Source of the DNA: Candidatus Aldehydirespiratoraceae bacterium
GTDB lineage: Bacteria > Actinomycetota > Acidimicrobiia > Acidimicrobiales > Aldehydirespiratoraceae
Assembly (NCBI GenBank): GCA_965204595.1
Contig: CBDBEW010000014.1
Span: 405,034-469,033 of the forward strand
Length of the DNA: 64,000 nt
Direction of reading: 5' to 3'
Shown piece after piece: positions 18,516 through 53,926 of the stretch. Both the position numbers and the translations under genes were made by a program. Within the stretch, counting starts at the first letter, position 1. The number at the start of each line of letters is the position of its first letter. The notes under the pieces are model-generated. The model was not told the origin of the DNA. It was given only the letters and a program-made list of their open reading frames with translations, and ran no database searches.

Positions 18516-19172
18516 ATGAAGCCACAACCGGCAGATACTAGCTCAAGTCGGCCACTAATAGCGGTGCTTGATTACGGCATTGGAAATCTGCGTTCAGCAC
18601 AAAAAGGCTTTGAGTTCGTTGGAGCCGACACCCGCCTGACTGCCGATAGGCAACTAATCAACGATGCCTGCGCGCTGGTTCTCCCTGGTGTTGGGGCTTT
18701 TGGGCCGGCGATGCGAGAAATGCGAGCGAGAGGGCTTGATGAAGTAGTGCTTGAACGGATAGCTGCCGGTGTGCCATTTTTTGGAATTTGCGTTGGCATG
18801 CAAATGCTCTTTTCTGCTTCAGATGAGGCACCTAACGTTGCTGGCTTGTCAGTTTTTCCCCAAAAGGTTCGCCTCTTGTCCTCTGCGGTCAAACGCCCGC
18901 AGATTCAATGGAACAAGCTCAAAATAGAACGACCACACCCTATGTTTGCCCATCTTGATCAACAGCCGTGGCTGTATTTTGTCCATTCCTATGCCGGCGA
19001 CTGGAGCGATGAAGTGATCGCGAGTTGCGATTACGGTGGTGCTGTGCCCGCTGCTGTGGCACGCAACAATGTCTGGGCAGCGCAGTTTCATCCCGAAAAA
19101 TCCAGCGTTGCCGGATTACAGATTCTCGCCAACTTTGTTGTTCACGCTCAAATGAATTCACCCGTTACCTAG
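18516..19172 (+). CDS. hisH: imidazole glycerol phosphate synthase, glutaminase subunit
   Basis: GICVGMQ nucleophile and QFHPEKS motif. Confidence 0.92.
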   Translation: MKPQPADTSSSRPLIAVLDYGIGNLRSAQKGFEFVGADTRLTADRQLINDACALVLPGVGAFGPAMREMRARGLDEVVLERIAAGVPFFGICVGMQMLFSASDEAPNVAGLSVFPQKVRLLSSAVKRPQIQWNKLKIERPHPMFAHLDQQPWLYFVHSYAGDWSDEVIASCDYGGAVPAAVARNNVWAAQFHPEKSSVAGLQILANFVVHAQMNSPVT

Positions 19173-30633: not shown

Positions 30634-30685
30634 GCACCTTAACTCAGTGTCACACCCCTTGTGCTATTGTGCAATGCGTTGCCAA
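30634..30685. repeat. left copy of a 52-bp direct repeat flanking the R-M cassette
   Basis: GCACCTTAACTCAGTGTCACACCCCTTGTGCTATTGTGCAATGCGTTGCCAA. Identical at 50 of 52 positions to 32510-32561 by manual alignment. Confidence 0.9.
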
Positions 30686-30714
30686 TGAACGAGCAAAATG
30701 GAGGAGCTGGCGGC

Positions 30715-31653
30715 ATGAGCGAAAGGTTTGACTGCGCTGACTTCTTCTGTGGCATAGGTGGGTTCCACATAGCCGCTGCAAGCCTGGGACATCGTGTCGT
30801 GGTGGCTTGTGATATTGACGAAGAAGCGCGGCGAGCGTATGCCGCCAACTTCGCCATCTTGCCCTATGGAGACATATGCACGTTGAACGAAAAGGAGGTG
30901 CCAGATTTCGACTTGTTGTTCAGCGGATTTCCCTGCCAGCCATTCTCGATCATCGGCAAGCGCAATGGTTTTGCTGACGACAGAGGCACGTTGTTTTTCC
31001 AACTGTCGCGGTTCATCTCTGAGAAAAAACCTATTGGGATCATCTTGGAAAACGTCAAGCAGTTGGCTACGGCTAAGGGCGGAACCTTACTACAGTGTAT
31101 GATTGAGGAACTATCCGATCTTGGATACCACGCTGACTACCGTGTGCTGAACACGCTGGACTTTGAGTTGCCGCAAAACCGCGAACGGGTTTACATAGCC
31201 GCATCTTTGCGGTCGCTTGAATCGTTCAAATGGCCCTCTGATGCCGTGTCTATGACACCGCTATCGGACATCTTGGAGAGCGATCCCGACCCCAAACACT
31301 TCGCGTCCGAAGAGATACGAGCTAAGCGTCACCGAGCGCATACCGCAGAGGCCAGTCCTATGATTTGGCACGAGAACAAGAGCGGTAACATATCTAGCCA
31401 TCCGTGGTCGTGCGCGCTAAGAGCGGGAGCCTCCTACAACTACCTGTTGGTAGACGGCAACCGCCGGCTGACACCGCGTGAAACGCTCAGACTGCACGGG
31501 TTCCCCGATTCATGGAAGATTGTGTGCAGCGACAGTCAAACGAAGAAGCAGACCGGTAACGCCGTGTCTGTGCCGGTCGCAAGGGCCATGATCAAAGCAA
31601 TGGGAGAGTACCTTGGAAGAACCGAGACTGAGACGCGGCAGTTATCAGCATAA
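30715..31653 (+). CDS. DNA (cytosine-5)-methyltransferase
   Basis: Motif I FFCGIGGF, motif IV GFPCQPFS, motif VI ENVKQL, motif VIII QNRERVYI, motif X TGNAVSVPV. Start chosen at the ATG at 30715 with GGAGGA 10 nt upstream. The track start at 30661 lies inside the repeat. Confidence 0.9.
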   Translation: MSERFDCADFFCGIGGFHIAAASLGHRVVVACDIDEEARRAYAANFAILPYGDICTLNEKEVPDFDLLFSGFPCQPFSIIGKRNGFADDRGTLFFQLSRFISEKKPIGIILENVKQLATAKGGTLLQCMIEELSDLGYHADYRVLNTLDFELPQNRERVYIAASLRSLESFKWPSDAVSMTPLSDILESDPDPKHFASEEIRAKRHRAHTAEASPMIWHENKSGNISSHPWSCALRAGASYNYLLVDGNRRLTPRETLRLHGFPDSWKIVCSDSQTKKQTGNAVSVPVARAMIKAMGEYLGRTETETRQLSA

Positions 31654-32352
31654 ACCACGATACCCGCTAGGCGAGATACCAGACGATGTGTTGCGTGCCG
31701 TGGGCAGACTTATGGTCTACCGCGCCGTTGTGGGCATTGGTGATGTAAGTGGAGACGGCTTCGGAGACATATTCGCAGAGGCCGTGGGAGGTACACACTA
31801 CGCTAGTCCTGTTGGCGTGGTGGATGTCGCTTGTGGGGTTACTGGATGGTCAGTGAAAACAGTGAAGAAGCCTGACCCGTTCACCACACGTACCATTAGG
31901 TTGGTATCTGGAAGGAATTCGCCAGACTATTCATACGGAATCTCAGACCCCCGTTACGACATACAGAAAACCGGCAGTGCTGTGTTGACGATATGGAACC
32001 AGCGTATCCAAGATTCGTTGTCGGAGTTTCACGAGCTCCGCACAGCGGGCTCGTTCGCAACTTTGAGGACAGGAAGTTCGTGCTGTTCGAGCACGAAATG
32101 GAACTGTTTCTGCCAGACGACTACTTGTGGACTGTGAATGCCCGCGGCAATTTAGAGGGCACAGAAACGGCAACAAACAGGAGCAGGTTCGTGTGGCAAC
32201 CGCACGGATCGCAGTTCACCATACGGGAGAACGTGCCGGACACGGCTAGGGCGTTTTATGTGGCGCGAACCGTGGAGACATTGGACACAGCCGACCTTCT
32301 CGGCCTTATAGATTACAGCGACGAGTGGATCAAATTGAAGGAGTCTCTGTGA
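31613..32352 (+). pseudogene. type II restriction endonuclease candidate, split by a frameshift near 32035-32060
   Basis: Two overlapping ORFs in different frames (31613-32137 and 31993-32352). The first carries a PD-(D/E)xK-like VVDVACGVTGWSVKTVK and ends in Cys/Ser-rich nonsense. The second becomes protein-like only from ...LVRNFEDRKFVLFEHE. The 5' end overlaps the MTase stop. Confidence 0.55.
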
Positions 32353-32587: not shown

Positions 32588-32950
32588 GTGACCACAAGTC
32601 CATTCGAACGAAACCCTGACCCTTTCGCCGAGGAAGGTTTTAGCTCTTCAACATCCCAAGTTGCCCCACTCAAGCGAGACACTAGCCTCGTGATTTTTAC
32701 CGTGCCGGCGATATTGGCATCGCTGCTCGCTGTTTTATTGTATTGGTGGGGTGTGGTGGGTTATGGTGCCGTGGGTATGGCTGCTTTAGGATACGTGCTA
32801 GCAGTGTTGGCAGACACACAAACGCGTCGCACACGTTACGATCAACGCAACTTCGTGCGCCCTAAACTCACTACTAGTTTGCGGGTCGCAACGTTTCTGA
32901 TGGCATTGTTGATCGGTTGGCTAGTTGCTTCAAATCTGGCAGGCTCGTGA
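32588..32950 (+). CDS. small three-TM membrane protein with an N-terminal SPF/DPF peptide (cassette gene A)
   Basis: AAGGAGG lies 7 nt before the GTG. N-terminus TTSPFERNPDPFAEEGF followed by three hydrophobic helices. The stop overlaps the next start (ATGA). Confidence 0.7.
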   Translation: MTTSPFERNPDPFAEEGFSSSTSQVAPLKRDTSLVIFTVPAILASLLAVLLYWWGVVGYGAVGMAALGYVLAVLADTQTRRTRYDQRNFVRPKLTTSLRVATFLMALLIGWLVASNLAGS

Positions 32951-35772
32951 TGCGCGTAATTTGTTTGCTATTTCTGGCAATTTCTTTGGCAGGTGTGCTG
33001 CTCGCAACCACGTCTCCCGCCACCGCAGAAACAAACGTGCCCGTTACCGACAGGTGCTTTTTATCCGAAAGTCAAAACCAAGTCAATGTTTTGATCTTGA
33101 TGGACGTTTCTGGGAGCTTGGCAAGTAACGATCCTGATGGGGCGCGTCAAAAAGGGTTGGAGAGTGCACTAAATAATCTCGCCCGCTTGGCAAGAACTCA
33201 TGATGACGTTGATATCAAAGTTGCCATAGACACATTCGCAAGACGCTATCGCCAAGTTTTGGGCTGGCTGGATGCGAACGAAGCAGCCGTGGCACTCGCA
33301 GACAACATTCGTGAAATTATTCGATCTGGTGGAAGAACTGACTACCGTGAAGCTCTCAAGGGTGCGGCAGCACGTTTTAGCGAAGAACCAGAAAGCACCT
33401 GCAACCTGCTTATGTGGTTCACAGATGGATCACACGACACGAACAATAGCACGCAGGTTGTAGCCAGTGAGTGGGCTGATTTAACCGAGCTTTGTTCATC
33501 ACAGGAAATGAGCGACCTGTCTAATGTAAGTGTCTGGACAACAAGCGTGCTGCTATCTTCAGACGACCTCAACCAAGCAAGCCTCAACACTACCCGCACC
33601 GAACCCCTCGAATTTGTTTACGGTGAACATCCGCGTAACTGTGAACATCCACTTGACGGTGAGATTCGAGCTGACATCAACAGCGAAGAGTTGCGCAACC
33701 TATTAGGCGAGCTATTAAGCGAGGCTGTCTACCGATCCACCGCTACTAGCGATTTGCCCGGAGACGATGATCTGCTACCAAACGAGGCTGAATTTGAAAA
33801 GTGTCAAGGAGAAGGCACCCAAGATGACCCCTGTCAGTTCAATTTTGGGCTAACCGAAACCCATGAGGGTTTTCGCGTATTTGTTGACATGACGTATTCA
33901 AACAATCAAATTCTTGATCCAAGTGCTATCAACGTTGACTTAATTTCTCCGACCGACCGGACATACTCGGTCTACTCTGCTTCGGGAAGCCAACCAACAA
34001 ATGAGGTCCGCTACCAAGAAATTGGTGATTCTGGATTTCTGTCCTACTTTCCATATGACAGTCGCTGGGAAATTATCGGCCATCAAGTGGCAAGAGATTC
34101 GGCTACTGATTGGGAGTGGGCTGGTGAGTGGACGCTTCACTATTGGGGCGACGATAGCGTCCAAAGCAGAGAAGCCACTAAGGTGGCAAGCGCGCTGCGC
34201 ACGATCACGACACCAAAACCTTCTGTCAATATGCGTGTTACCCCGCAAGACGCTCTATTTGGAGAAATAACCAATTATCCAGAACCTGACCAGATACCAG
34301 AATTGCGCTTGCGAGTAGAAAACGGCCAAGGTGGACCACTCTATACCACACGCACGTTCCCTCTGAGTCCAGTGAGCACCGAAAATCCGCAGTTTAGCGA
34401 ACCAGACATTTATAAAGATTTGCTTTACTGGGATAGTGAAGCTGGGGGTGGTGATGGAACAAGTTTGCTTGAAGCATTCGAGAATCAACCGCCGATCACC
34501 TTGGTTGGGGAGTTGAGTCAGGAATTTCAATATGGCAACAACGACGTGACCTGGACACGTCCATTGGATAGACAACTTGAATTGGAAGGTCTCGCCAACT
34601 TCATTGAAGGCGTTAATGAGCGTGCAGAGTTAGAAGAGTGGCTCAACGACCTAGAGCAAGGTAACGCAGATCAACCTGCGTTGCCAACGGTACAGTTGAC
34701 TAATACACCATATGACATTAATGGCTCTGAGGTGGAATTAGATGTTGATGTGCCTGAGGGACGGTTTCCTGGGGACTTGTCGCTAGTTGATGTTAGAGCA
34801 ACAGAAGGTAACCCAGCGGGTGCGTGGAACTGCTCCACACCGTCGGACACTCCTTGCCCACCAGTCAAAGTAGACTTGGGCTTAAACGAAGACGGCAACG
34901 TGGAGACCACGTTAGTTATAGAAATACGCCCAAATCCCGACCTAGAAAGAACATTACGCAACCGCTATGTGATGTTTAGCAACGACGAATGGGCTGATAT
35001 CTGGAATCGGATTTCCCAAGCCACTCAAGCCACAACACTTACTCTGACCTCTGAACCAATTCAGGTCGACATTGCCACCCCTAGCGACAAGATAAGCAAG
35101 TTCTTACCAATATTGGTGGCTCTCGTTTTGTTGGCGGTTGCGTTGCGCTTTGCGGCGGCTTGGTGGCTAAGGCCCTGGCTGCCCTTGGCAACAGCTCAAT
35201 ATGTTGTGAAACCCCTGCAATCAGCGACTGGACTTGCACCCATGATTTCACAACAGCGAGAGTTGTGTATGGACCTCACCGCGCGATCATCATCTGCCAA
35301 TATTGGCTCGGTGGTGCTCAACTCGAGGTTGTTGCCTCTTTTGATAGGTCGTCCCCCGTTGCTTGAAGCACGATCGTCGCGCGGCAATTGCTTTGGTTCA
35401 AGAGGCAGCTATCACAACAGAAAGGGCGAAAGAGTAGGTCGAGTTGGAAACTCTTTGCACGATGGTTGGGTGGTTGATCTTGCAACAGACACACCCTTGT
35501 TGATTGTGTGGGACTTACCAAGTGATGAAACAGATCAGGCAAATCGCATCTCAGAAGTGACCAGCGAAGCATCAGACAAATTGGAGAAGTTGCATCTTGC
35601 AACGCACAAGCCAGCATCGAATCAAAGTTCCAAGATCCCATCGCCACAAACTGACCCATTTTCAAATCCCGCTCGGGATCCATTTGCTGAACCACGGATT
35701 AGCAATGATCCCTTCGCAGATGAGAGCCGTGATCCGTTCAACGAACCAAGACGCAGCGATCCCTTTACGTAA
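32950..35772 (+). CDS. type-I membrane vWA (MIDAS) protein with a cytoplasmic DPF-repeat tail (cassette gene B, 940 aa)
   Basis: Signal peptide MRVICLLFLAISLAGVLLATTSPATA/ETN. vWA MIDAS motif LILMDVSGS (DVSGS at 33103-33117) plus MWFTDGSHD. Large extracytoplasmic region and a TM segment FLPILVALVLLAVALRFAAAWWL (about 35101-35168). The C-terminal tail ends with five DPF motifs. Confidence 0.8.
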   Translation: MRVICLLFLAISLAGVLLATTSPATAETNVPVTDRCFLSESQNQVNVLILMDVSGSLASNDPDGARQKGLESALNNLARLARTHDDVDIKVAIDTFARRYRQVLGWLDANEAAVALADNIREIIRSGGRTDYREALKGAAARFSEEPESTCNLLMWFTDGSHDTNNSTQVVASEWADLTELCSSQEMSDLSNVSVWTTSVLLSSDDLNQASLNTTRTEPLEFVYGEHPRNCEHPLDGEIRADINSEELRNLLGELLSEAVYRSTATSDLPGDDDLLPNEAEFEKCQGEGTQDDPCQFNFGLTETHEGFRVFVDMTYSNNQILDPSAINVDLISPTDRTYSVYSASGSQPTNEVRYQEIGDSGFLSYFPYDSRWEIIGHQVARDSATDWEWAGEWTLHYWGDDSVQSREATKVASALRTITTPKPSVNMRVTPQDALFGEITNYPEPDQIPELRLRVENGQGGPLYTTRTFPLSPVSTENPQFSEPDIYKDLLYWDSEAGGGDGTSLLEAFENQPPITLVGELSQEFQYGNNDVTWTRPLDRQLELEGLANFIEGVNERAELEEWLNDLEQGNADQPALPTVQLTNTPYDINGSEVELDVDVPEGRFPGDLSLVDVRATEGNPAGAWNCSTPSDTPCPPVKVDLGLNEDGNVETTLVIEIRPNPDLERTLRNRYVMFSNDEWADIWNRISQATQATTLTLTSEPIQVDIATPSDKISKFLPILVALVLLAVALRFAAAWWLRPWLPLATAQYVVKPLQSATGLAPMISQQRELCMDLTARSSSANIGSVVLNSRLLPLLIGRPPLLEARSSRGNCFGSRGSYHNRKGERVGRVGNSLHDGWVVDLATDTPLLIVWDLPSDETDQANRISEVTSEASDKLEKLHLATHKPASNQSSKIPSPQTDPFSNPARDPFAEPRISNDPFADESRDPFNEPRRSDPFT

Positions 35773-35804: not shown

Positions 35805-38800
35805 ATGCTTAGACCAGTAATCTTTATCGGATGTGGCGGCTCTGGAGAAAAAGCTGTTCGCTACGTTCGTGCAGCAGTGCAGCGAACCCTTGACCATTAC
35901 GATTGGCCCCACGGTATGCCAAACCCGTGGCAGTTCATCGGCCTAGATACCCTTACAGTGCAGGAATCACCCACAGAGATCCCAACCATCCCCTCACAAG
36001 ACTTCTTGACGCTGTCCTCAGAACACGACACCTACGCGGCACTGCACCGCTCATTAGAAGCCAATCACAACCAACACCAAGGACACCCAGAATTGTTGTG
36101 CGGCTGGTTGCCCAACCCAGATGGCGTGAGTCTTCCTCTCAAGGATGGAGCTGGCCAGAATCGTGCTATAGGTAGAGCCGCAGGACTAAGATCTCTTGAA
36201 CGCACACTATTATCGCGTCTCAAAGAAGCATTCAGAAGAGCGAGTTCTGGCGGCCAAGAACTTTACGAGGTTGGTCAGGCACTTGGGGTGGATGCTGAAC
36301 TCGGAACCGAAACTCCAGCACCCTTGGTGATGGTTTGTTCATCCATGGCAGGCGGCACGGGAGCCGGTGTTGCACTAGATGTGATCGACCTAGTACGTCG
36401 CTGTGATCCATTGGGTGCCCATCCCTCGCTAGTGCTATTTGCCAATGACATCTTTGATGTGGGGGAGAAGGTTCCGATGGCAGCAAACTCTTTGGGTTTG
36501 ATTTCAGAGCTGATGGCTGCTTATTGGTCTAGGGCAGGTGAAATCGAATCACCACTCACCACTAAAGGAGTGCAAAGCCCAGGTGCGGGGCCTCACTCTG
36601 TTTTTGTGCTAGGCAAGGTGGGTTACAGCGGCGCAGACCTCGGTAACACCAAAGACTTCTATCACGCAGTTGGTGAAGCTCTGTCGGTATGGGTTACATC
36701 AGCAGTTGTACAAGAACAGATTCACAACTTCATCAACGTCAATTGGCGCAACAATGCCAAGATCAACTTTGGTGGTTATCCCTTTGGCAAGGATGCACAG
36801 TTCGGGGCAATCTCTTCTTTCGGAGCAGCAAAAGTGACCGTGGGACGGGATCGCTTTGTGCAATGGGCACAACACAAAATTGGTAGGGAAGTGCTTGACG
36901 CATTGCTCAAAGGCCACCTTAGAGATCAATCGCTTCAGGGAAATCAGCAGACATCGCAAACAACAGATGCAGAACTCATTGCTGAGCTCGGCAAAAAATA
37001 CGCCCCAATGGTGTTTGCGGGTGCCCCACTTTGGGAAGCAGCACCCGAACAACTAGAAGGTTTTCAGGGCGCACAGCTGCGCTTTGCTTCAGATGAAAAG
37101 GTTCGCAACAAGGCGAGAGAGCTAAATAATGACTTGACAGAAACACTGGGTGGACACACCTCCAGCGGTGCTCAATGGGCGAGCGAACTCGAACTGCTCG
37201 CACGCCAACAGGTTTCTGCTATTGACCGTTCAAGCACTGCACCTGAAGATCACCAGTGGCACCAAGACATGGTGGATGCCACCTGTTTATCCGCATCGCA
37301 AGTGGCCGCAGTGTCGTCTCTAGGTGTTGCCTCAGCCGCGCTAAGAGAAGCGGTAAAGCTAAATCAAAGAGAACTAAACGACGTGCGCCGCGCGGCACAA
37401 CTTGCTGAGCACAGATACGGCGAACGTGTTGGCCAGGGCTTGGAGCAAATTCGCAACATCAATGGTCAAGCCGATAACAATCACGGCGAACTCGTGGACG
37501 GTATCAAGAGTGTTGCGCAAGGCGTGGCGTTCCGTTGGCAGTTTCAACGCCTCAACCACGTAGCAAAAGTGCTAGAACACGCCGAACGAGAGGTCTTTGG
37601 GGTTATCGCGGGTGCGCTAGATAGGGTCGTTCCCCAAGTAGGCGAAGCACTCGACAGCGATGAGGTGAATGCTTGGCCCATGCCACACACCCTTGGCGTG
37701 CCCGATCGCTACACCCCTTCAACGGTGGAATTTCCTCTCGAACATCATGACCAGTGGATGGATAATCTCGAGCTGCTCTGCCAGGAGGCTAGGGAAAGTA
37801 GAGTGCCTTATGGGGCCAGAGAAATAGATGCACTTCGTTACCGTCTCATTGCTGGCACCCCCATAGCGAGCAGCAAAGGGCAAATTCCCTCGTTGGTGCA
37901 TCGCTCGCCAACACGTTGGATATTAGGGCAATCTACTAGGGTGATCTGTCAAGCAGGCAAAGCAGATATTGAGGCCCGCGTGCATCAATGGACCAACGCT
38001 CCAGGTAGCAAGTTTAAGCGCTTCTTAGATGAAGGGTTGGCGGCTTATCTCAATGAAAGCGATCCCGATAGTGGTGAACCGCGACTAGACCACACCCAAC
38101 GACTGCAAGAGTTTAGAAGGCAACTTGGCAAAGCTAAAGAAGGTTCCAAACCGCTGGTGTCGGTAGATCAAGACCTCTATGGGGTTTGTCACCCCACGAA
38201 GAGTTTGGAACTACGCACAATTTGCTCACAGTTTCCCTTTCCCGAAGGCCACGCAGCGAGCGAAGATGCCAAGGGCATCGTCGGTGAAGCTGCCTACAGT
38301 ATTAGCAGCACCGACACGACCTCGATTCTGGTTTCGCAATACTTAGGTAATCCTGTTCATCCCATGGTGGTGCGCTCCATCACAGAGCCACTTAATGAAG
38401 CGATCGCAGTAACAGAAGACCCCGTTGAACGCTCGTCGTCATTTTGGATGTGGCGGCGCGCCAGGCGTCTTGATGGCTTTATACCGTTGCCGAGGACGGT
38501 GCTTGAAGCAGTTGTAAGGGGTTTTGCCGTGGCCAGACTTTGTGGCTACATCACCGCAGATGCTAGCAAACCAATGTGCATCAGTGCAGCCCCTGATGAG
38601 GTGGAGTTCCCGTTTCCATGTCTGAGTAGGTTGCGTCATCCCAACGATGTCTTAGCAGGTCTGCTTGAGAGCTTCTCGTTGACATATGGCTTAGTTGGAG
38701 GTGAAGGAATAGCGGCCTTTGAAGGATACAGGCGGCTTCATGGGTTAGGTGAGCCTATCGAACGCAAACAACTACCTAGAGACCTAGAAAATTTGCTCAA

Positions 38801-39083
38801 CACAGGATTACCAACATACGCCGCGGTAGCTGGGGAGGAAGCGAAAGTTATTGGTAGCACTCTCGACGAACGTCAAAGTCGTGCCATGTCCTATTTAGAA
38901 GCAAATGTGCAATGGTTTTGGGATAAGAAAACCAATCGTGGCGAGCGCATCCATCATCGCAATCAAAACGGTCTTGCTGAAGAAGGTGTGCCGACAATGG
39001 AAATGGCCGACGTGTTTGCTCGCTGCTACAGCCAACTCCTTGAACTTCTGGCGGCGAGAGGCTCAAAAGGCAGCGTGGTATGA
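35805..39083 (+). CDS. tubulin/FtsZ-like GTPase, large form (Tubulin_2-type, 1092 aa; cassette gene C)
   Basis: N-terminal VIFIGCGGSGEKAV (T1-like loop, 35829-35846). DGAGQNRAIGRAAG segment. LVMVCSSMAGGTGAGVALDVIDLVR (tubulin signature-like T4 loop, GGTGAG at 36351-36368). ANSLGLISELMAAY segment. About 750 aa of C-terminal sequence is unassigned. Confidence 0.75.
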   Translation: MLRPVIFIGCGGSGEKAVRYVRAAVQRTLDHYDWPHGMPNPWQFIGLDTLTVQESPTEIPTIPSQDFLTLSSEHDTYAALHRSLEANHNQHQGHPELLCGWLPNPDGVSLPLKDGAGQNRAIGRAAGLRSLERTLLSRLKEAFRRASSGGQELYEVGQALGVDAELGTETPAPLVMVCSSMAGGTGAGVALDVIDLVRRCDPLGAHPSLVLFANDIFDVGEKVPMAANSLGLISELMAAYWSRAGEIESPLTTKGVQSPGAGPHSVFVLGKVGYSGADLGNTKDFYHAVGEALSVWVTSAVVQEQIHNFINVNWRNNAKINFGGYPFGKDAQFGAISSFGAAKVTVGRDRFVQWAQHKIGREVLDALLKGHLRDQSLQGNQQTSQTTDAELIAELGKKYAPMVFAGAPLWEAAPEQLEGFQGAQLRFASDEKVRNKARELNNDLTETLGGHTSSGAQWASELELLARQQVSAIDRSSTAPEDHQWHQDMVDATCLSASQVAAVSSLGVASAALREAVKLNQRELNDVRRAAQLAEHRYGERVGQGLEQIRNINGQADNNHGELVDGIKSVAQGVAFRWQFQRLNHVAKVLEHAEREVFGVIAGALDRVVPQVGEALDSDEVNAWPMPHTLGVPDRYTPSTVEFPLEHHDQWMDNLELLCQEARESRVPYGAREIDALRYRLIAGTPIASSKGQIPSLVHRSPTRWILGQSTRVICQAGKADIEARVHQWTNAPGSKFKRFLDEGLAAYLNESDPDSGEPRLDHTQRLQEFRRQLGKAKEGSKPLVSVDQDLYGVCHPTKSLELRTICSQFPFPEGHAASEDAKGIVGEAAYSISSTDTTSILVSQYLGNPVHPMVVRSITEPLNEAIAVTEDPVERSSSFWMWRRARRLDGFIPLPRTVLEAVVRGFAVARLCGYITADASKPMCISAAPDEVEFPFPCLSRLRHPNDVLAGLLESFSLTYGLVGGEGIAAFEGYRRLHGLGEPIERKQLPRDLENLLNTGLPTYAAVAGEEAKVIGSTLDERQSRAMSYLEANVQWFWDKKTNRGERIHHRNQNGLAEEGVPTMEMADVFARCYSQLLELLAARGSKGSVV

Positions 39084-41677
39084 GTTCCGCTGCGCGTTTA
39101 GTGATATTAATGTCGGCTGACCCCGCTGAATTCACTGCGCCCCTCAACGACAACCTCGCTGATTGGTGTGAATCTGGCCTGCTAGGGGAGGTGGTGTGGC
39201 TTTGCGCGCAAGACCTAGCAACTCATCTTCACAATGCAGAGTGTTGGACAAATCACAACCAAACTTGGCAAAAGACAACCCTCGCCGCGGCCATGTCGCA
39301 GCAGTTCTTTGGTGAGGTGTGGTTAGCTGCGCTGAGACACCCTCACGCCACAAACGACCCCACGCTAAAAGAAACTGCTCGCCACACCGAAGAACAAGCC
39401 CACTCAATATTGGGCCAAATGGTTGGCACCGACAGCAATTTTCGATCATTCACCGTCAAAATTGCACGAGAAACGGCCACAAGCACCGCTCAAGACTGTA
39501 CCCCTGCCTGGGACTTCCACCTCATTCATGATGCGATGGTGGCAACGCACTCAAACCTCCCCAAAGTGGGTGCGTCGGCAAGTTCACCACTAAGCCTCTG
39601 CGCGATCGTGGCGCTATGTGCAGCGAGTGGTTGGTACAACGTAGACACATCAATCAATATCGGTTCAGATGTGGCTGATGGCGTGTTCAAACCAGTGCGT
39701 TTTGTGCGCTGTCAGTTGAGAGTTTTACACACGCCGCTGATTTTGGGATTCGCAATACCTTCTGCAACTCCCACGGCACCACCATGGCCACTACCTCAAG
39801 TCGACAATGTGCAAAGAGCACACCCTGATGCAGTGCCTCCGCTATCGCTAGCTACCAACTTAGCGCAGCAAAGTGGACTGGTTTGTCGCCAACCACCAAC
39901 TGTGCCAAAGGCGGGCCGCAAGTATGAGTTTGCAAGATTGTGGAAGAAATTTGCTGGTTCCATACCGGCCATTCCTGCTGTCTCAAAATATGAACAAGCA
40001 CTGCACAGGTTCGCAGATCGCACTGGGGGAACTAGCCAAGAAAGTACAACTAAAGCTGTGCTTCAACTAGTTGACATCAGCGACTTTCCAGACCTAGTGT
40101 TACAGGTGCGACGCAGCGATTTTCCTCCTGTACTCGACCCGTCAAATGCTTTCATAGAAGCTGAGGATTCTTGGAAAAATGTGCGTGACGTAATGTTTGG
40201 CCTTGTTGATGGATCCGAACTAATCGCCAAGGTCAAACATCCAGTAGACGAAACAGTCAAAGACCCACCTCGGCTACTCTGGACCGATCCACGCGGCTTG
40301 GCACCTGAACAATCTCCTCTTGACGCAACTGATGTCTGGCCAGTTTCTAAAACTGATGAAGTTCAAGAAGAGAAACTCGTAGGGGATACGAACAAACGTT
40401 CAACAAAGTTGCAGCACAAAGACACACTAATGGAACGCCTTACAGAAACGCTGCGCCAGGCGATTGCGCAAGCACAGCAAAACTTTATCGATAACTGCGT
40501 CATCGCCTCAGTTGACGATCACTATGATCAAGCTAAGTCCAGCCAAAGAAAAGCTCGGCTTGTGGGTGCGGTTTTGTCGGTAGCGATTTTCATTTCCTTG
40601 CTGCTAATGCTTGATCAACGCATGCCTACCCTTGCTGGTGTTATTGAGGGCATAACCCCGTTTGGTGCTCTACGAAGAGACTGGGGGATTGGTTTCTACA
40701 TCATCATATTGTTAGCACTACTTGGTGGGCTGATCTGGTTTGGCAAGTTGTTTGATCAAATGTTAGAAGCGCGCCACCAACTTGAAGCGATTTACGCACA
40801 ACGCCATCGACTGGGCATTTATAGCTCTCACTATGCAGCAGAGCTTTTGCGACTGTGGGGGGTAGGGCAGCAGTACGCCGATCATCGGCTAATCATCACA
40901 GAATTCTTGCATCGTCCATTCGGCAATCTTGTAGCTAATGACAGAACTACTTTGAATGCCGCAGAGTTGCCATTCCGACAAGACCCCCCAGCGGCGATGC
41001 TGGTGACCCACGCAGATGTGAACCCCAGGAAAATCCCAGACATCCATCGTCACGGTCAAAGAACAGCAGTGGCACCTAAATGGCTCAATGAGGCATATGG
41101 CCGTGTGTACTCTATTTGGAAACAATCGTTCCAAAAGAGAGTGGTTGGAGAGTTTCTAGACCCCGACCACGACATTACCGCGCGCAATACCGTAATTCAC
41201 AAGAATCGTCGTGATGGTAGCGACTTGTTTGGTGCGCGCACAGAATTTTCGACCGCTGTTGTTGGAGCATTCGGACTTGCAGAAACGGGGTGGGCTTTGC
41301 GACAAGCAAGCGATGAGCGCACCATAACCTTGTTAGAACAACATCGTGATAACCCCGAAGAATTTCTAGCAGCATTTGGCAATATTAGAACTGTACATGG
41401 TGCTTATCCAGGCATTAGCGCGGAGGAGTTTTTTAGGTTCTCTCATTCACAACACGACTTGACTTGGCGTTCTCTGCTTGCTGCTAACACTGAAGCACCG
41501 GAGGTAAGAAAATTTACAAGCAAAATCGGCATCGTTCCGACAGTTGCAGACAAGCGATCATTAATTTTGGCTTGGCAAATGGTTATTTCTGATCCAGTAC
41601 GTCCTCAAGACCAAGCGGGTTGGCGAAAAGACACCACAGAACAACACCTACCTACCACACATGAATCGATTGTGTGA
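39080..41677 (+). CDS. large two-TM protein of unknown function (cassette gene D, 865 aa)
   Basis: ATGA overlap with gene C. TM hairpin LVGAVLSVAIFISLLLML and IGFYIIILLALLGGLIWFG (about 40562-40745) lies between two large soluble regions. No motif recognised. Confidence 0.7.
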   Translation: MSSAARLVILMSADPAEFTAPLNDNLADWCESGLLGEVVWLCAQDLATHLHNAECWTNHNQTWQKTTLAAAMSQQFFGEVWLAALRHPHATNDPTLKETARHTEEQAHSILGQMVGTDSNFRSFTVKIARETATSTAQDCTPAWDFHLIHDAMVATHSNLPKVGASASSPLSLCAIVALCAASGWYNVDTSINIGSDVADGVFKPVRFVRCQLRVLHTPLILGFAIPSATPTAPPWPLPQVDNVQRAHPDAVPPLSLATNLAQQSGLVCRQPPTVPKAGRKYEFARLWKKFAGSIPAIPAVSKYEQALHRFADRTGGTSQESTTKAVLQLVDISDFPDLVLQVRRSDFPPVLDPSNAFIEAEDSWKNVRDVMFGLVDGSELIAKVKHPVDETVKDPPRLLWTDPRGLAPEQSPLDATDVWPVSKTDEVQEEKLVGDTNKRSTKLQHKDTLMERLTETLRQAIAQAQQNFIDNCVIASVDDHYDQAKSSQRKARLVGAVLSVAIFISLLLMLDQRMPTLAGVIEGITPFGALRRDWGIGFYIIILLALLGGLIWFGKLFDQMLEARHQLEAIYAQRHRLGIYSSHYAAELLRLWGVGQQYADHRLIITEFLHRPFGNLVANDRTTLNAAELPFRQDPPAAMLVTHADVNPRKIPDIHRHGQRTAVAPKWLNEAYGRVYSIWKQSFQKRVVGEFLDPDHDITARNTVIHKNRRDGSDLFGARTEFSTAVVGAFGLAETGWALRQASDERTITLLEQHRDNPEEFLAAFGNIRTVHGAYPGISAEEFFRFSHSQHDLTWRSLLAANTEAPEVRKFTSKIGIVPTVADKRSLILAWQMVISDPVRPQDQAGWRKDTTEQHLPTTHESIV

Positions 41678-41718
41678 TATTGGTATAGGGGTAGGCACGA
41701 GCTTGACTTGATATCCAA

Positions 41719-41746
41719 ACTTGACATAACATATATTTCAGGCGTT
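41719..41746 (-). other. candidate dif (XerC/XerD) site, overlapping a 9-bp inverted repeat
   Basis: The - strand reads AACGCCTGAAA-TATATG-TTATGTCAAGT. The right arm fits the generic XerD arm TTATGTnAAnT (9/11 to E. coli TTATGTTAAAT). TGACATAAC (41722-41730) and GTTATGTCA (41744-41752) are perfect inverted copies. Confidence 0.4.
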
Positions 41747-41812
41747 ATGTCACCCCAAACGTTTCAAAGCAAATCGTGCTGTGGTGTATGCGCTAGGCGT
41801 TTGGGGGTGCTA

Positions 41813-43096
41813 GTGTTGTTGTTTGTGTCACGGAGATTAGAGATAGAACTAACGTCTGACCGCACCGACGGCCAATGGACTTGGCGCGCTGCTGGTGCCA
41901 AGAAACCCAAAGGTCTAGTTGATGCCAAGTTGCTGCCAGAGAAGGTTCAAGTTGGTGATGTATTACGTGTTGAAGCGAATGCAAGCCTTGATGGATTAGA
42001 GATCATCACCGTGCTGCCGTCTCGTTTATCAAAGCCCAAAGACAAAATATTGCAACTGATCGGCTCAGCTCCAGAAGAGTCATTAGTAATGTCAACGACA
42101 GCAACCAAAACTCGCTCAAAGAACTCGAAAGGTAGTAAGAAAGAGCGATCTGAACGCCCGCAAAACAGCAACGCAGAAGTTGTGCAGAATAAAAAGAAGA
42201 GAAACAAACGCGCCCAAGACGACCGAAGTAAGCAAGTAGACAAACTCAAAAAACGTAACAACAACCAAAAACGCAGATCATCGTTAACGAAAACTTCTAA
42301 AACACGTCGCTTACGCCCCAACAACAAACATCGGCTCGCTGCATTAGAAGCACTGCCCAAAATTCAACAAGAACTCGCTAGTGAGGTGATGAGAAGAGGC
42401 GTTGCTGGCGTGCGTGAAAGCATTGAAAGGATGAATGCTCTCGCCAAAGATGAAGGCATCCCTCAAGTCAAGTCGGAACCCCTTGTTGCCTTAGCCGAGC
42501 AACTGGCACCGATCATGAAGGCCGCAGAATGGCGAGACCGTGCCGAAGCAGTTTACGCCAATCTCGAAACTGTTGATCTAAAAGACTTGCGTACCGTGGT
42601 GGTTGCTGCTGACAGTGCAGCGCGAGACGAAGAATCCAAAGCTCTGGCTAAAAAAATCCAGGAGGGGCTAACAACTCGGGTGGAACGCGAACATCGAGCC
42701 TGGCTCAACGAAATCGTTAATCACCTCACCGATGGGCGTACGGTTCTGGCTTTAACGCGCAGTAGCCGTCCGCCCAAAGCAGGTGCACCATTGCCAATAG
42801 ACGTGTCCGAGCGGTTAACTAAAGCAGCGGTGGCTTCGCTCACTAGCGATACCGCAGCCAAACGCTGGGCCACTGTGTTAGAGGCACTAGCTTATTCGCC
42901 AGTTCGATCCTTAGTTACGCCACAAAGCTGCATCGAAAAACCGAGTGAAGAGTTGCTAGCCACTATCAAAAGGTTGTCGCCCAAGATTCCTCAAATTGCC
43001 TCACTTTTTGGAATTGAAGATAAGAGCAAATCGCTGGCATCTGTAAAAGTCCGGCCTCAGCCCCCACCTCCACCACAACAAACCTCACAAAGCTAG
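41813..43096 (+). CDS. hypothetical protein with a Lys/Arg-rich linker and Pro-rich C-terminus
   Basis: Conserved-looking N-terminal beta-rich segment RLEIELTSDRTDGQWTWRAAGAKKPKG...VGDVLRVEA. K/R-rich stretch (about 42100-42340) and a helical C-terminal domain. Start uncertain: GTG at 41813 or 41825 after GGGGG. The track start at 41708 would run through the dif-like site. Confidence 0.5.
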   Translation: MLLFVSRRLEIELTSDRTDGQWTWRAAGAKKPKGLVDAKLLPEKVQVGDVLRVEANASLDGLEIITVLPSRLSKPKDKILQLIGSAPEESLVMSTTATKTRSKNSKGSKKERSERPQNSNAEVVQNKKKRNKRAQDDRSKQVDKLKKRNNNQKRRSSLTKTSKTRRLRPNNKHRLAALEALPKIQQELASEVMRRGVAGVRESIERMNALAKDEGIPQVKSEPLVALAEQLAPIMKAAEWRDRAEAVYANLETVDLKDLRTVVVAADSAARDEESKALAKKIQEGLTTRVEREHRAWLNEIVNHLTDGRTVLALTRSSRPPKAGAPLPIDVSERLTKAAVASLTSDTAAKRWATVLEALAYSPVRSLVTPQSCIEKPSEELLATIKRLSPKIPQIASLFGIEDKSKSLASVKVRPQPPPPPQQTSQS

Positions 43097-47347: not shown

Positions 47348-47953
47348 TCAAACCCAAACGTCAAGTGCTGCGGGTTCCACCCGAATACTCAAACGTGTTG
47401 CCTTGCCGTGAGGTAGTCCATCAAGAGTTATCGACATGGGGTGGGGTAGGTCTAGTTGCGTTGCTTTGCTGCGGCGCACCTTAATGTCTCGATGTGGTAT
47501 GTGGCTCCCTGAACGCAGCCTCCTGAATGCTTTAACACGTTGAGAAAAGCCTAAGTTGCCCTCAATGATGTCGAGTAAGCCATCACCCGGATGAGCTCTT
47601 GGTGCTACATTGTGGGTGCCGATGAACGCGGCGTTAGCGGCAATCACCAATGGTCCATGCCACCACGAATTTCGTGCTACTAAATTAGCAAGAAACCAGA
47701 AAAGCCGTCCATCCACTAACACTGCTCCTAAATCAACTTGCAGGTGGGTACCATTGTTAGCTCGCAGACGTTTTTCATTATTATGTGCTCCTAGTGTTCG
47801 AGCCAAATCACCACCAAGCAAACACAGTTTAGGCAGAGTTTCTTTAGCGCGCTTAGCGTTATTTACCAGTTCGTTGGCTTGCGAGTCCGATCGCACAAAA
47901 TATGCATCGCTTGGCACTTCACCACTATCACCCACAAAGTTGATGGGGCTCAC
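47348..47953 (-). CDS. hypothetical protein, possibly a lipid-kinase (DAGK) C-terminal-like fold
   Basis: GDGLLDIIEG...ITLDG resembles the C-terminal half of YegS/BmrU-type kinases. GTGA overlap with the tatC stop. Confidence 0.4.
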   Translation of the reverse strand: MSPINFVGDSGEVPSDAYFVRSDSQANELVNNAKRAKETLPKLCLLGGDLARTLGAHNNEKRLRANNGTHLQVDLGAVLVDGRLFWFLANLVARNSWWHGPLVIAANAAFIGTHNVAPRAHPGDGLLDIIEGNLGFSQRVKAFRRLRSGSHIPHRDIKVRRSKATQLDLPHPMSITLDGLPHGKATRLSIRVEPAALDVWV

Positions 47954-48723
47954 GTTAGTTTCTTGGCTGTTTGTCGCTTGCGAAGTCGGCCATACAGTAT
48001 CGCTATCTCATAAAACAAATACATGGGAACAGACAATACACCCAAGGTAAAAGGGTCACCGCTCGGCGTGATCACCGCTACTAGAGCAACAATGCCCACC
48101 ACAGCGTAACGGCGACCCCGACGCAAAACCTTGTTGTCGACAAGCTCAAGTTCTTGCAAAAAGATCAGTGCTATCGGGAACTCAAAGCCAATCCCAAATG
48201 CAACAATCATTTTGATAACGAATCCAAGATACTCATTAGGTGAATACCATTCAACTAGGTCTTCGCCACCTACCTGAGACAAAAATTCTAGTGCTCGGGG
48301 GATACTCCAATATGCGAGCGCAGTGCCAGCAAAAAACAGTGTCACGCTACTAATCATGAAAGCCACCGCGTATCGTTTTTCATGAGAAAACAACCCTGGT
48401 GCGACAAAACGCCACGTTTGCCACAAAACTAGCGGCATAGCTAAAATGACTCCGCCGTAACCAGCAACAGACATTCGCACACTGAACGGCTCGAAGGGGT
48501 TACGCGCGTAGAGTTGGCAACCACTACCAAACACATCACTAGCAATACGGTCAGCTTCAGGTAAGGAACGACAATACGGTTCAAGCAAGAAGCCAAGTAT
48601 CCAGGGGTACAAAAACCAACAAATCACCACACCCACAGCAATCGCGCTAACGGAGATTATGAGCCGTTGCCGTAACTCTGTAAGGTGTTCCACAAGGGTC
48701 ATTGCAGACACTTGCGGGTTCAT
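47950..48723 (-). CDS. tatC: twin-arginine translocase subunit TatC
   Basis: MTLVEHLTELRQRLI N-terminus and six TM helices. ATGA overlap with tatA. Confidence 0.9.
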   Translation of the reverse strand: MNPQVSAMTLVEHLTELRQRLIISVSAIAVGVVICWFLYPWILGFLLEPYCRSLPEADRIASDVFGSGCQLYARNPFEPFSVRMSVAGYGGVILAMPLVLWQTWRFVAPGLFSHEKRYAVAFMISSVTLFFAGTALAYWSIPRALEFLSQVGGEDLVEWYSPNEYLGFVIKMIVAFGIGFEFPIALIFLQELELVDNKVLRRGRRYAVVGIVALVAVITPSGDPFTLGVLSVPMYLFYEIAILYGRLRKRQTAKKLT

Positions 48724-51852: not shown

Positions 51853-53211
51853 CTACAGGTTTGAGATTAGTTTGGCTACCCGGTCATCTTGCGCTTTGAA
51901 TGGATCTTTGCATAAGACCGTTCGTTGGGCTTGGTCGTTGATCTTCAAATGTACCCAATCAACCGTGTAGTCTCGTTTTCGTTGTTGAGCACGGCGCACA
52001 AACTCGCCACGAAGGTTCGCTCGTGTGGTTTTAGGCGGATTTTCAACAGCTTGAGAAATGTGTGAGTTGGTAATAATCCGTTCAACGAGACCTCGTTTTT
52101 GCAAGCGATAATACAACCCACGTTTAACAATGACATCATGGTATTGCAGGTCAAGCAAAGCTATTGTCGCAGCAGACAACTCTAGGTTGTGGCGGGTGCG
52201 GTAACCTTGGATTAGCTGGTACTTCATCACCCAATCAAGCTCTCGTTCTAGCTTCAATGGATCATCGGCAAGCTCGGTTATACAGTGCTCCCACATTTTC
52301 AACACCAACTTCTCTTCAGAGGTTAGCTCGTGGTGTTCGGCGAAACGCAAAGCTCGCTCTAGGTACTCACTTTGAATGTGAAGAGCGGACACTTCACGAC
52401 CATTAGCTAAACGCACTCTTCTCTTACAAGTAATGTCGTGGCTGATTTCGCGGATGGCACGAATTGGGTTCTCCAACGTCATATCACGAAGCACCACGTT
52501 TGGTTCTTCCAACATACGCAACATTAGCGCAGTTGTGCCAACCTTTAAAAATGTGCTATATTCGCTCATGTTGGAATCGCCCACGATCACATGCAGCCGT
52601 TTGTAACGTTCGGCATCAGCATGAGGTTCATCTCGAGTGTTGATGATTGGCCGAGAGCGAGTTGTCGCAGATGAAACACCATCCCAGATGTGTTCAGCCC
52701 GTTGGCTTATCGCATATTTAGCCCCCCGCGTGGTGCGTAACACTTTGCCGGCACCAGCAATGATTTGCCTACTCACCAAAAACGGAATCAATACTTGTAG
52801 GTACGAGGAAGGTTTGTCTTGGCGTGGCACGCAATAATTTTCGTGGCAACCATAACTGTTACCTGCGAAGTCTGTGTTGTTTTTGAACAGGTAGATGTTG
52901 CCGTGGATACCTTCAGCGGCTAGTTCGCCTTGTGCATTGACTAATAGTTGTTCTAATATGCGCTCACCAGCTTTGTCGTGGGCGATGAGGTCACCTAAGG
53001 CGTCACATTCAGGGGTTGCGTATTCCGGATGACTGCCAACATCAAGATAAAGTCTGGCACCATTCGCTAAAAAGACATTGCTAGAACGCCCCCATGAGAC
53101 CACTCGCCGAAACAAATAGCGAGCCACTTCATCTGGACTCAAACGCCGTTTCCCTCGCAAGGTGCAGGTGACACCGTATTCGTTTTCGATCCCCATTATT
53201 CGCCGTTGCAC
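51853..53211 (-). CDS. pafA: Pup-protein ligase PafA
   Basis: [16 protein letters not shown]...[26 protein letters not shown] is near-identical to the M. tuberculosis PafA N-terminus ([16 protein letters not shown], from memory). The GTG at 53211 gives 452 aa and removes the overlap with prcA. Confidence 0.93.
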
Positions 53212-53245
53212 AGACAAGAACCTTGCTCTTAGGTTGTTGGTTAGT

Positions 53246-53926
53246 TCACTCGGTGAGTAGACGGGTTGTTTCGGTGTTGTCGATTCGCCGAAACGCCCGT
53301 CTGCCAATACCTCTTTGCAGCACCGCGATTTCTAGGTCGTCAGGACCTAAAGAACGGTCAGGTCCACTTAGCGCAGCAACGGCACGTTTAAGTCCATCGC
53401 TAAGTTCAACCACCTCAGTAAATTCGCCAAAACGTTCTGAGATGGCCTCTGTTTCACCACCGAGCACAACGTAAAAATCTTCATCAACTACCGTGCCGTC
53501 ATAGAGTATGTGAAACATTTGGTCAGAGCTGCCGTCTTCTGAGCCGATTTCAGCAACCAATATTTCCACTTCCATTGGTTTCATTTCGTGAGTGAAGATT
53601 TGCCCTAAGATTTGAGCGTATTGGTTGGCTAAGCTGCGCGCTTCAACATCGCCACGGCTAAAAGTGTAGCCTTTGAGGTCGGCGTGGCGTATGCCAGCTA
53701 CCCGCAACTGGTCAAATTCAATGTATTTGCCAACACCGGCAAAAGCCATGCGGTCATAGATTTCGCTGACCTTATGCAGAGTCGCAGATTTATTTTCAGC
53801 GCAAATGGCGATGCCTTCTAAGAAGCGGAAAGCAATCAGGCTACGGCCTCGTGCAATACCTTTGCGAGCATAAAACGCACGGTCTTTCATTACTTGCTCA
53901 GGTGCCACATAATAGGGTGTGTTCAT
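53246..53926 (-). CDS. prcA: proteasome alpha subunit
   Basis: [30 protein letters not shown]-terminus, typical of actinobacterial PrcA. Confidence 0.92.

Follow-up and report, generated by a model that had tools for sequence, protein, structure and literature searches.

We report a repeated peptide motif, Asp-Pro-Phe (DPF), on the membrane proteins of a four-gene cassette (A-B-C-D) located in 64,000 nt of DNA from a Candidatus Aldehydirespiratoraceae bacterium (assembly GCA_965204595.1, contig CBDBEW010000014.1, positions 405,034 to 469,033 of the forward strand); this whole stretch is referred to as the window. The run of DPF at the C-terminus of the membrane protein B is a genuine, selected and operon-specific short linear motif (SLiM), and it is most likely a multivalent docking site. 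A preliminary description of the window, made before the present analysis, had called the large C-terminal region of C unassigned and missed both that C is a tubulin-like FtsZl1 protein and that the operon is of a known type. The cassette as a whole is an FtsZl1/vWA operon with the defining features of this operon type, which was predicted by comparative genomics (Makarova & Koonin 2010, PMC2875224); the Pfam family Tubulin_2, to which the GTPase domain of C belongs, corresponds to the FtsZl1 family (PMC9871819).

Translation of positions 35647-35769 (plus strand) gives QTDPFSNPARDPFAEPRISNDPFADESRDPFNEPRRSDPFT, i.e. five DPF within 41 residues followed by the stop codon, and positions 32597-32635 (plus strand) encode SPFERNPDPFAEE, which are residues 4-16 of A. 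Thus both the five DPF at the C-terminus of B and the SPF/DPF peptide near the N-terminus of A, as given in the preliminary description, are borne out. At the composition of B itself 0.006 DPF are expected in 41 residues, and the probability of five or more copies is about 7e-14. We also shuffled the tail alone 200,000 times, so that its composition rich in D, P and F was kept, and obtained a maximum of three DPF; five copies of any tripeptide were reached in none of 20,000 shuffles. The codons vary among the five copies (GAC/GAT, CCA/CCC/CCG, TTT/TTC) and Tandem Repeats Finder detected no DNA repeat in the B tail, from which it follows that the repetition is held at the amino acid level; a recent DNA duplication as the origin of the run was rejected on the same result. 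Among all open reading frames (ORFs) of at least 60 amino acids in 17 loci (about 350 kb) and all ORFs of the window, two or more DPF were found only in A, B and a further membrane protein of the sister operons, F, which is described below. The only other near-terminal DPF in the window occur in TatC and in a Pup-ligase-family (PafA/Dop-type) protein. Both are single copies embedded in folded regions and were rejected as related motifs. Example peptides of the motif are SRDPFNEPRRSDPFT and MTTSPFERNPDPFAEE.

Whether the DPF repeats are conserved in homologous cassettes had been proposed as a check in the preliminary description, and we found that the motif is kept and is the sole conserved feature of the tails. 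A search of 5.8 billion proteins returned 27 relatives of B (24 of them full-length), mostly from metagenome-assembled genomes of Acidimicrobiia (Aldehydirespiratoraceae, Ca. Poriferisocius). All 24 full-length homologues (35-40% identity) carry 1-5 DPF in the last 60 or so residues; the tails usually end in RDPFE-COOH, and their remainder cannot be aligned. When the window protein and its 90% twin were left out, we counted 54 DPF in the 22 remaining tails compared to 1.2 expected (maximum of 6 in 5000 shuffles), and DPF is by far the most enriched tripeptide in them. The twin, P0002, differs from B by six substitutions in the 41-residue tail, all of which fall within the spacers. The locus of the closest C relative, L008, has NPF, NPF and DPF. 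In all 11 sister loci the A homologues start with DPW or DPF in the pattern MS-x-DPW-G-[ST]-x-x-(x)-DPF, where the second motif is DPF in eight of the 11 and D[VL]F (DVF or DLF) in L003, L009 and L010; variants of the A N-terminus are DPF and DPF in L008, DPF in L018, and DPF and SPF in L019. As both DPF and DPW are found at these starts, the motif class is written DP[FW]. Over 107 instances its context is [S/R/N/D]-D-P-[F/W]-[G/A/E]. The copies most often lie 7 residues apart, and a second peak of the spacing, at 13-14 residues, is found where the middle copy has decayed to DPS. NPF, EPF, SPF and DPL occur as variants. The tails are biased in composition (D 14%, P 11%, S 13%) and rich in D, E, P, S and G. 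The motif is kept and its flanks are not, and the copy number varies among orthologues, which is the behavior of a SLiM. Some homologous loci deserve a separate remark. The C-terminus of the B homologue P0009 (1030 amino acids) reads through the stop codon into the FtsZl1 start (...MLRPVIFIGCGGSGEK); on this short contig a frameshift or faulty assembly is the probable cause, rather than a real fusion. At L019 (6955-9996, 14858-15857) B is split in two ORFs and D is fragmentary, so that this operon is probably decaying; the motif persists there nonetheless, at the A N-terminus as given above and with three DPF in the C-terminal fragment of B.

The motif is not confined to A and B. In nine of the 11 sister loci the region downstream of D encodes F, a membrane protein of about 540 amino acids with an N-terminal DPF array; its gene usually follows two lipoprotein-like genes, and in L003 its start overlaps the D stop codon. 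F carries 2-4 DPF in its first 60 residues (MPPPSDPFASG...DPF...DPF...DPF), then one transmembrane helix and an extracytoplasmic domain with HELGH, a zinc-protease-like HExxH motif seen in sequence only. We counted 25 DPF in the F tails compared to 0.9 expected. A homologue search for F in the window found none, and F is also missing from L008 and L009. In the F protein of L003, about five tandem copies of SASDDEGGDGRFTEPDGFF are present in the N-terminal tail (18835-19150), and DPF has drifted to DGFF or DRF in these copies; this is a case of motif-array expansion via repeat duplication. In operons whose C is 51, 43, 41, 36 and 34% identical to that of the window the order small protein, vWA protein, C is retained, and D follows C except in the degraded L019. 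The B tails of these operons contain, respectively, two DPF, three DPF and three DPL (ending DPLV), or end in NWNPDDPFA-COOH and DDEPFGGAFA-COOH. At L022, where C is 34% identical, a transmembrane protein of 90 amino acids encoded after D ends in SSDPFA-COOH. Occurrence on further membrane proteins, together with the fact that the motif is all that is conserved in the tails, is the signature of a functional SLiM.

For the wider family we searched 1.84 billion representatives with a B profile and obtained 992 matches; tails were counted in the 109 full-length proteins among the best 150. DPF lies within the last 12 residues in 22 of the 109 (0.43 expected), and the broader pattern [DEN]P[FWLY] in 37 (2.4 expected). 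Typical ends are DPDDPFA, FDPFA, DDPLA, DDW, LPDFLxx and LFDD; arrays of DDW(G) or DPWG make up some of the tails, and the tails of other clades carry DPL, DDW, DPWG, WDD or DFL. A Tubulin_2 (FtsZl1) gene adjoins in all eight distant examples that were looked up (three with tails ending in DPF, one array each of DDW and DPWG, and the types of Arachnia, Georgenia and Microlunatus). In the clade of L016 and L017 the FtsZl1 protein itself ends in LPDWDAF and its downstream neighbor in GLDEFDQDF, both of them acidic-aromatic. In general, the subunits encoded by FtsZl1 operons have acidic-aromatic ends whose sequence depends on the clade, and DP[FW] is the version of this clade and of a wide circle surrounding it.

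With regard to topology, the signal peptide of B, its one transmembrane helix and the W-L-R-P-W that follows place the tail, by prediction, in the cytoplasm. The loop between the hydrophobic segments 2 and 3 of A, TQTRRTRYDQRNFVRPK, is strongly positive; together with the hairpin before it, this predicts that the N-terminal tail of A is inside, and the arginines ahead of the single transmembrane helix of F predict the same for the N-terminal tail of F. The central transmembrane hairpin of D would leave both large domains of D (residues 1-490 and 560-865) on the same, presumably cytoplasmic, side, and C has no hydrophobic segment or transmembrane helix by hydropathy. All DP[FW] tails are therefore predicted to lie on the same side of the membrane as C and the large domains of D. 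The assertion of the preliminary description that both tails point toward the cytoplasm agrees with these hydropathy and sequence-rule predictions. Its description of the B tail as disordered is supported by prediction as well, since the tail has a predicted local distance difference test (pLDDT) score of 24-43 across two AlphaFold2 fusion models, as is characteristic of the disordered regions in which SLiMs reside.

We searched C and D for a possible receptor. No protein of the cassette is better conserved than C. Its AlphaFold2 model has a pLDDT of 90 and a predicted template modeling score (pTM) of 0.84. The model consists of a tubulin-like N-domain, for which the best Foldseek matches are CetZ (CetZ2) and tubulins, of long helices and coiled coil at about 380-620 (with helices of 45-57 residues at 506-617), and of an alpha/beta, alpha-rich C-terminal domain at about 640-1087. 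The loops GGSGEK and GGTGAG are invariant in the C homologues. Pfam gave no domain in C besides Tubulin_2, and as the tubulin domain dominates the Foldseek result of the C model, this search is without information on the C-terminal domain. Foldseek gave no significant match for the D model, which is only moderately confident. When C and D were searched against the PDB by sequence and by profile, only chance coiled-coil matches came back. The C-terminal domain of C contains a basic-aromatic patch, in which the columns F880, W881, W883, R884, R885 and L889 are invariant or nearly so; the C-like proteins of Arachnia, Georgenia and Microlunatus, at only 24-31% identity, still have this patch, FWxWRRARxL. 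Judged from its sequence, it is a candidate site that would suit an acidic-aromatic ligand. In addition, the ends of C and D are alike. We compared 116 C homologues: 73 have V and 16 have I at the very end, 83 have V one place before it, and 59 have S at position -3. Of 21 D homologues, 20 end in xSVV, xSIV, xPVV or xQVV. This [S/G]-V-[V/I]-COOH common to C and D looks like a second terminal motif and has a formal likeness to a class I PDZ ligand.

The most economical reading of these data is that the motifs act as docking sites. According to this model, DP[FW] in 1-5 copies would be displayed on acidic, disordered, cytoplasmic termini of the integral-membrane subunits A, B, F and the 90-residue protein, and would gather these membrane-spanning subunits onto cytoplasmic components, namely the hairpin-anchored D and/or the GTPase C, the latter perhaps only when assembled. 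In this way docking would link whatever the extracytoplasmic vWA domain binds to a cytoplasmic GTPase assembly. We infer that the motif binds something and that the partner is C or D, and to docking onto C and/or D we assign a probability of roughly 0.55. From the preliminary description the motif stands as real, conserved, repeated and present also on further membrane proteins of the sister operons, with multivalent docking as its most likely role; the proposed receptor, the C-terminal region of C or protein D, is not supported. Several observations weigh against C or D as the partner. We modeled two fusions, in which the last 75 residues of B were joined to C or to D, using alignments of 86 C homologues and 20 D homologues, and judged the models by per-residue confidence. 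In the C fusion C has a pLDDT of 90 and the tail is flat at 31-43, and in the D fusion D has a mean pLDDT of 62 and the tail lies at 24-32, with no rise at the DPF positions in either. This is a weak negative, as the models are single chains with no nucleotide and no alignment depth for the tail, and the D model is poor; it speaks weakly against a strong pocket on C at the monomer level. Furthermore, neither C nor D yielded a known peptide-binding domain with Pfam, NCBIfam, the PDB sequence and profile search or Foldseek, the co-occurrence of the motif with C and D is confounded by phylogeny, and the literature searched holds no binding data for any FtsZl1 system.

A rival reading is that the docking partner is encoded elsewhere in the genome. 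It could be a chaperone, an AAA+ unfoldase or a housekeeping protein of the cytoskeleton or divisome, and the membrane proteins of the operon would then be clients of a general system. This reading would fit the fusion models, in which no docking on C or D was seen, and the fact that FtsZ-type tails of similar flavor (acidic, with Pro and Phe) bind several unrelated partners. However, in the loci and the window surveyed above only the proteins of this neighborhood carry the motif, and the motif type shifts clade by clade together with the operon (DPF, DPL, DDW, DPWG, DFL), which is explained more easily by a co-evolving partner encoded in the operon. We therefore regard an off-operon partner as unlikely. 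Self-association or autoregulation is in our view quite unlikely: DP[FW] would act as 'stickers' for the folded cytoplasmic domain of B (about 740-880), bound in cis or in trans, and would thereby cluster or auto-inhibit the membrane proteins instead of recruiting C or D. A well-conserved cytoplasmic domain does lie directly before the B tail, and multivalency at a regular spacing of 7 residues is typical for clustering systems, but A, F and the small protein of L022 have the motif without this domain, even if they could still bind it in trans.

That the motifs are terminal degrons or processing signals for the turnover of the membrane subunits appears very improbable. The best-conserved copy is indeed at the extreme terminus (DPFE- or DPFA-COOH in B, M-x-x-DP[FW] in A and F), and a Pup-ligase-family gene (PafA/Dop type) and tatC are present elsewhere in the window. 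However, the same tripeptide is found N-terminally, C-terminally and internally and in up to five repeats, and such varied positions and repetition fit a position-independent binding motif and not a terminal degron; moreover, we know of no actinobacterial degron with a DPF sequence. The tails are compositionally biased, so that the repeats might be thought a functionless by-product of low-complexity D- and P-rich sequence or of chance. This has practically no probability left, as composition-preserving shuffles remain far below the observed counts in the window and in the family alike, the copies differ in their codons and form no DNA repeat, and the motif is conserved where the spacers are not; the shuffles and the conservation refute an origin by chance or composition.

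The coordinates of the features are listed in Table 1. According to the ORF list the four genes lie on the plus strand with ends that overlap or nearly abut. A starts at GTG 32588, with an AGGAGG Shine-Dalgarno sequence 7 nt upstream. B probably starts at ATG 32950 (MRVICLL..., 940 amino acids) rather than at TTG 32917; this ATG overlaps the A stop codon by 1 nt, and the protein read from it is 100% identical to the database protein P0001. In B, the residues D52/S54/S56 of the metal ion-dependent adhesion site (MIDAS) are invariant among homologues, a region of ~690 residues holds eight conserved cysteines, and a conserved cytoplasmic domain of ~150 residues (about 740-880) with WLRPW, CMDL, PLL.GRPP, DGW and VWDLP lies between helix and tail. 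A homologues are found directly 5' of B in L001-L011, and D follows C in L001-L011, L018 and L020-L023.

Table 1. Features of the A-B-C-D cassette in the window, and of protein F in the sister loci
Feature	Coordinates	Strand	Description	Basis
Gene A	32588-32950	+	120-aa membrane protein; acidic N-terminal tail, three hydrophobic segments, positive loop (residues 75-99)	ORF list, hydropathy
Motif pair of the A N-terminus	32597-32626	+	SPF 32597-32605, DPF 32618-32626	Translation
Gene B	32950-35772	+	940-aa type I membrane protein: signal peptide, extracytoplasmic vWA region, one transmembrane helix, cytoplasmic domain, DPF tail	
vWA domain of B	33088-33429	+	Intact DxSxS metal site	Pfam VWA_2, E 2e-8
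Transmembrane helix of B, FLPILVALVLLAVALRFAA	35101-35157	+	Residues 718-736; conserved W-L-R-P-W right after	Hydropathy and conservation
C-terminal tail of B	35647-35769	+	Disordered, acidic; DPF at 35653-35661, 35677-35685, 35707-35715, 35731-35739, 35758-35766	
Gene C	35805-39083	+	1092-aa cytoplasmic FtsZl1 protein	
Tubulin_2 GTPase domain of C	35820-36896	+	Residues 6-364	Pfam PF13809, E 1.2e-33
Basic-aromatic patch of C, FWMWRRARRL	38442-38471	+	Residues 880-889, C-terminal domain; near-invariant in 87 homologues	
End of C	39072-39080	+	S-V-V-COOH	
Gene D	39080-41677	+	865 aa; start overlaps C stop codon (ATGA)	
Transmembrane hairpin of D	40559-40615 and 40685-40741	+	Central	Hydropathy
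End of D	41666-41674	+	S-I-V-COOH	
Protein F	L001 20617-22242; L003 18835-20583; L004 20399-21961		Equivalents in L002, L005-L007, L010, L011	

The same thioesterase gene stands beside the cassette in 10 of 11 related genomes, which indicates a chromosomal core locus. In the window a gene for a C-5 cytosine DNA methyltransferase (PF00145, E 7e-75) lies between the thioesterase gene and A, in the stretch 30661-32352, together with a pair of overlapping ORFs, 31613-32137 and 31993-32352, which are in different frames and possibly are one frameshifted gene. As the thioesterase gene of L008 is only about 300 bp from A, this stretch looks like an inserted restriction-modification-like module. After D, on the same strand, follows ORF E (41708-43096), which encodes 462 amino acids with a lysine-rich middle and was matched by no model of Pfam, NCBIfam or PADLOC. 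None of the related loci has a counterpart of E after D, so that E probably lies outside the cassette. PADLOC gave no known defense-system match for A-E or the two upstream ORFs, and the cassette was rejected as a known anti-phage defense system on this result. NCBIfam gave no match for A-E, and A, D, E, F and both lipoprotein-like genes were likewise without a Pfam match. Further away, a TatC-like membrane protein (47950-48723, minus strand) and the PafA/Dop-type protein (51853-53307, minus strand), both judged by sequence, are consistent with an actinobacterial chromosome; the GC content of the window is 50%.

FtsZl1 is the most divergent branch of the tubulin/FtsZ superfamily and occurs in many bacteria and some archaea. 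In the literature searched we found no functional or experimental study of FtsZl1, no description of terminal motifs in FtsZl1 operons and no DP[FW] motifs in bacteria. What is newly seen here is probably a peptide-motif tethering between a tubulin-family system and membrane proteins, which as such is of a known type. The main objection to the membrane-remodeling hypothesis of 2010 is that nothing links the cytoplasmic FtsZl1 to its extracytoplasmic vWA partner, and a reviewer of that paper asked how the two could connect (PMC2875224). The review of the paper also names cgR_2627 of Corynebacterium glutamicum, a tractable actinobacterium with an FtsZl1/vWA operon. A conserved multivalent cytoplasmic motif on the membrane subunits is a concrete and cheaply testable handle for finding this link and the assembly state that reads the motif, and thereby a direct experimental handle for a long-uncharacterized branch of the tubulin superfamily. 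The clade-dependent acidic-aromatic tail ends can moreover serve as an annotation signature for clients of FtsZl1 systems. A bolder idea, which we consider improbable, is that FtsZl1 operons might be a prokaryotic cargo-and-coat machine for membrane remodeling, in which the assembled tubulin-like GTPase would read arrays of DPF-, DPW- and NPF-like tails, perhaps via FWxWRRARxL, and the S-V-V-COOH of C and D would add connections. If this were true, the system would be a convergent functional analogue of the eukaryotic DPF/DPW/NPF network and C the first tubulin-family protein recruited by peptide motifs of membrane clients.

Compared to the FtsZl1/vWA operons described so far, the cassette agrees in that C has an N-terminal divergent FtsZ/tubulin GTPase domain (Tubulin_2), an extended coiled coil and then a mostly helical C-terminal domain without FtsZ_C or Tubulin_C, in that the adjacent vWA protein B has an intact MIDAS, a signal-peptide-like N-terminus and one transmembrane helix, and in that the remaining partners are lineage-specific membrane proteins. 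It differs in that neither terminal peptide motifs nor a physical link between vWA protein and FtsZl1 are described in PMC2875224 or PMC9871819, and in that this clade is without the OmpA, kinase and P-loop GTPase genes listed in PMC2875224.

A comparable known peptide is the C-terminal peptide of FtsZ, which is short, acidic, contains Pro and Phe (consensus D-[IV]-P-x-F-[LM]) and stands after a disordered linker; it binds FtsA, ZipA or SepF, its extreme C-terminal position matters, and it tethers a tubulin-family polymer to membrane-bound partners. In our case the peptide is on the membrane proteins A and B, while C has no DPF and ends in GSKGSVV; the consensus is DP[FW] in multiple copies, and no FtsA, ZipA or SepF homologue was found in the cassette with Pfam and NCBIfam. 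The motif is thus not the FtsZ C-terminal-peptide system, as the peptide is on the other partner and its consensus is different. In the proposed docking, with the peptide on the membrane protein and the pocket on the cytoskeletal side, the arrangement of FtsZ tail and FtsA, ZipA or SepF would be inverted.

The DPF/DPW and NPF motifs of eukaryotic endocytosis (Eps15, epsin, Dab2) bind the AP2 alpha-appendage, the mu-homology domain of FCHo/SGIP1 and EH domains (e.g. PMC4731787, PMC12370899), and for SGIP1 the minimal binding unit is a pair of consecutive DPF motifs. The same tripeptides, DPF, DPW and, in L008, NPF, are found here in multiple copies in disordered acidic regions, with a presumably multivalent action and in a system proposed to remodel membranes. 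The copies here are regularly spaced at 7 residues. A difference is the location on the integral membrane proteins themselves. As no appendage, mu-homology or EH domain was found (Pfam on A-E, Foldseek of the C and D models), the motif is not the eukaryotic DPF/DPW-appendage system, and we regard the resemblance as analogy or convergence and not as homology. Should the function turn out to be similar, this coincidence of motifs would have evolutionary interest. The DP[FW] motif resembles both the FtsZ peptide and the eukaryotic motifs in its likely mode of action.

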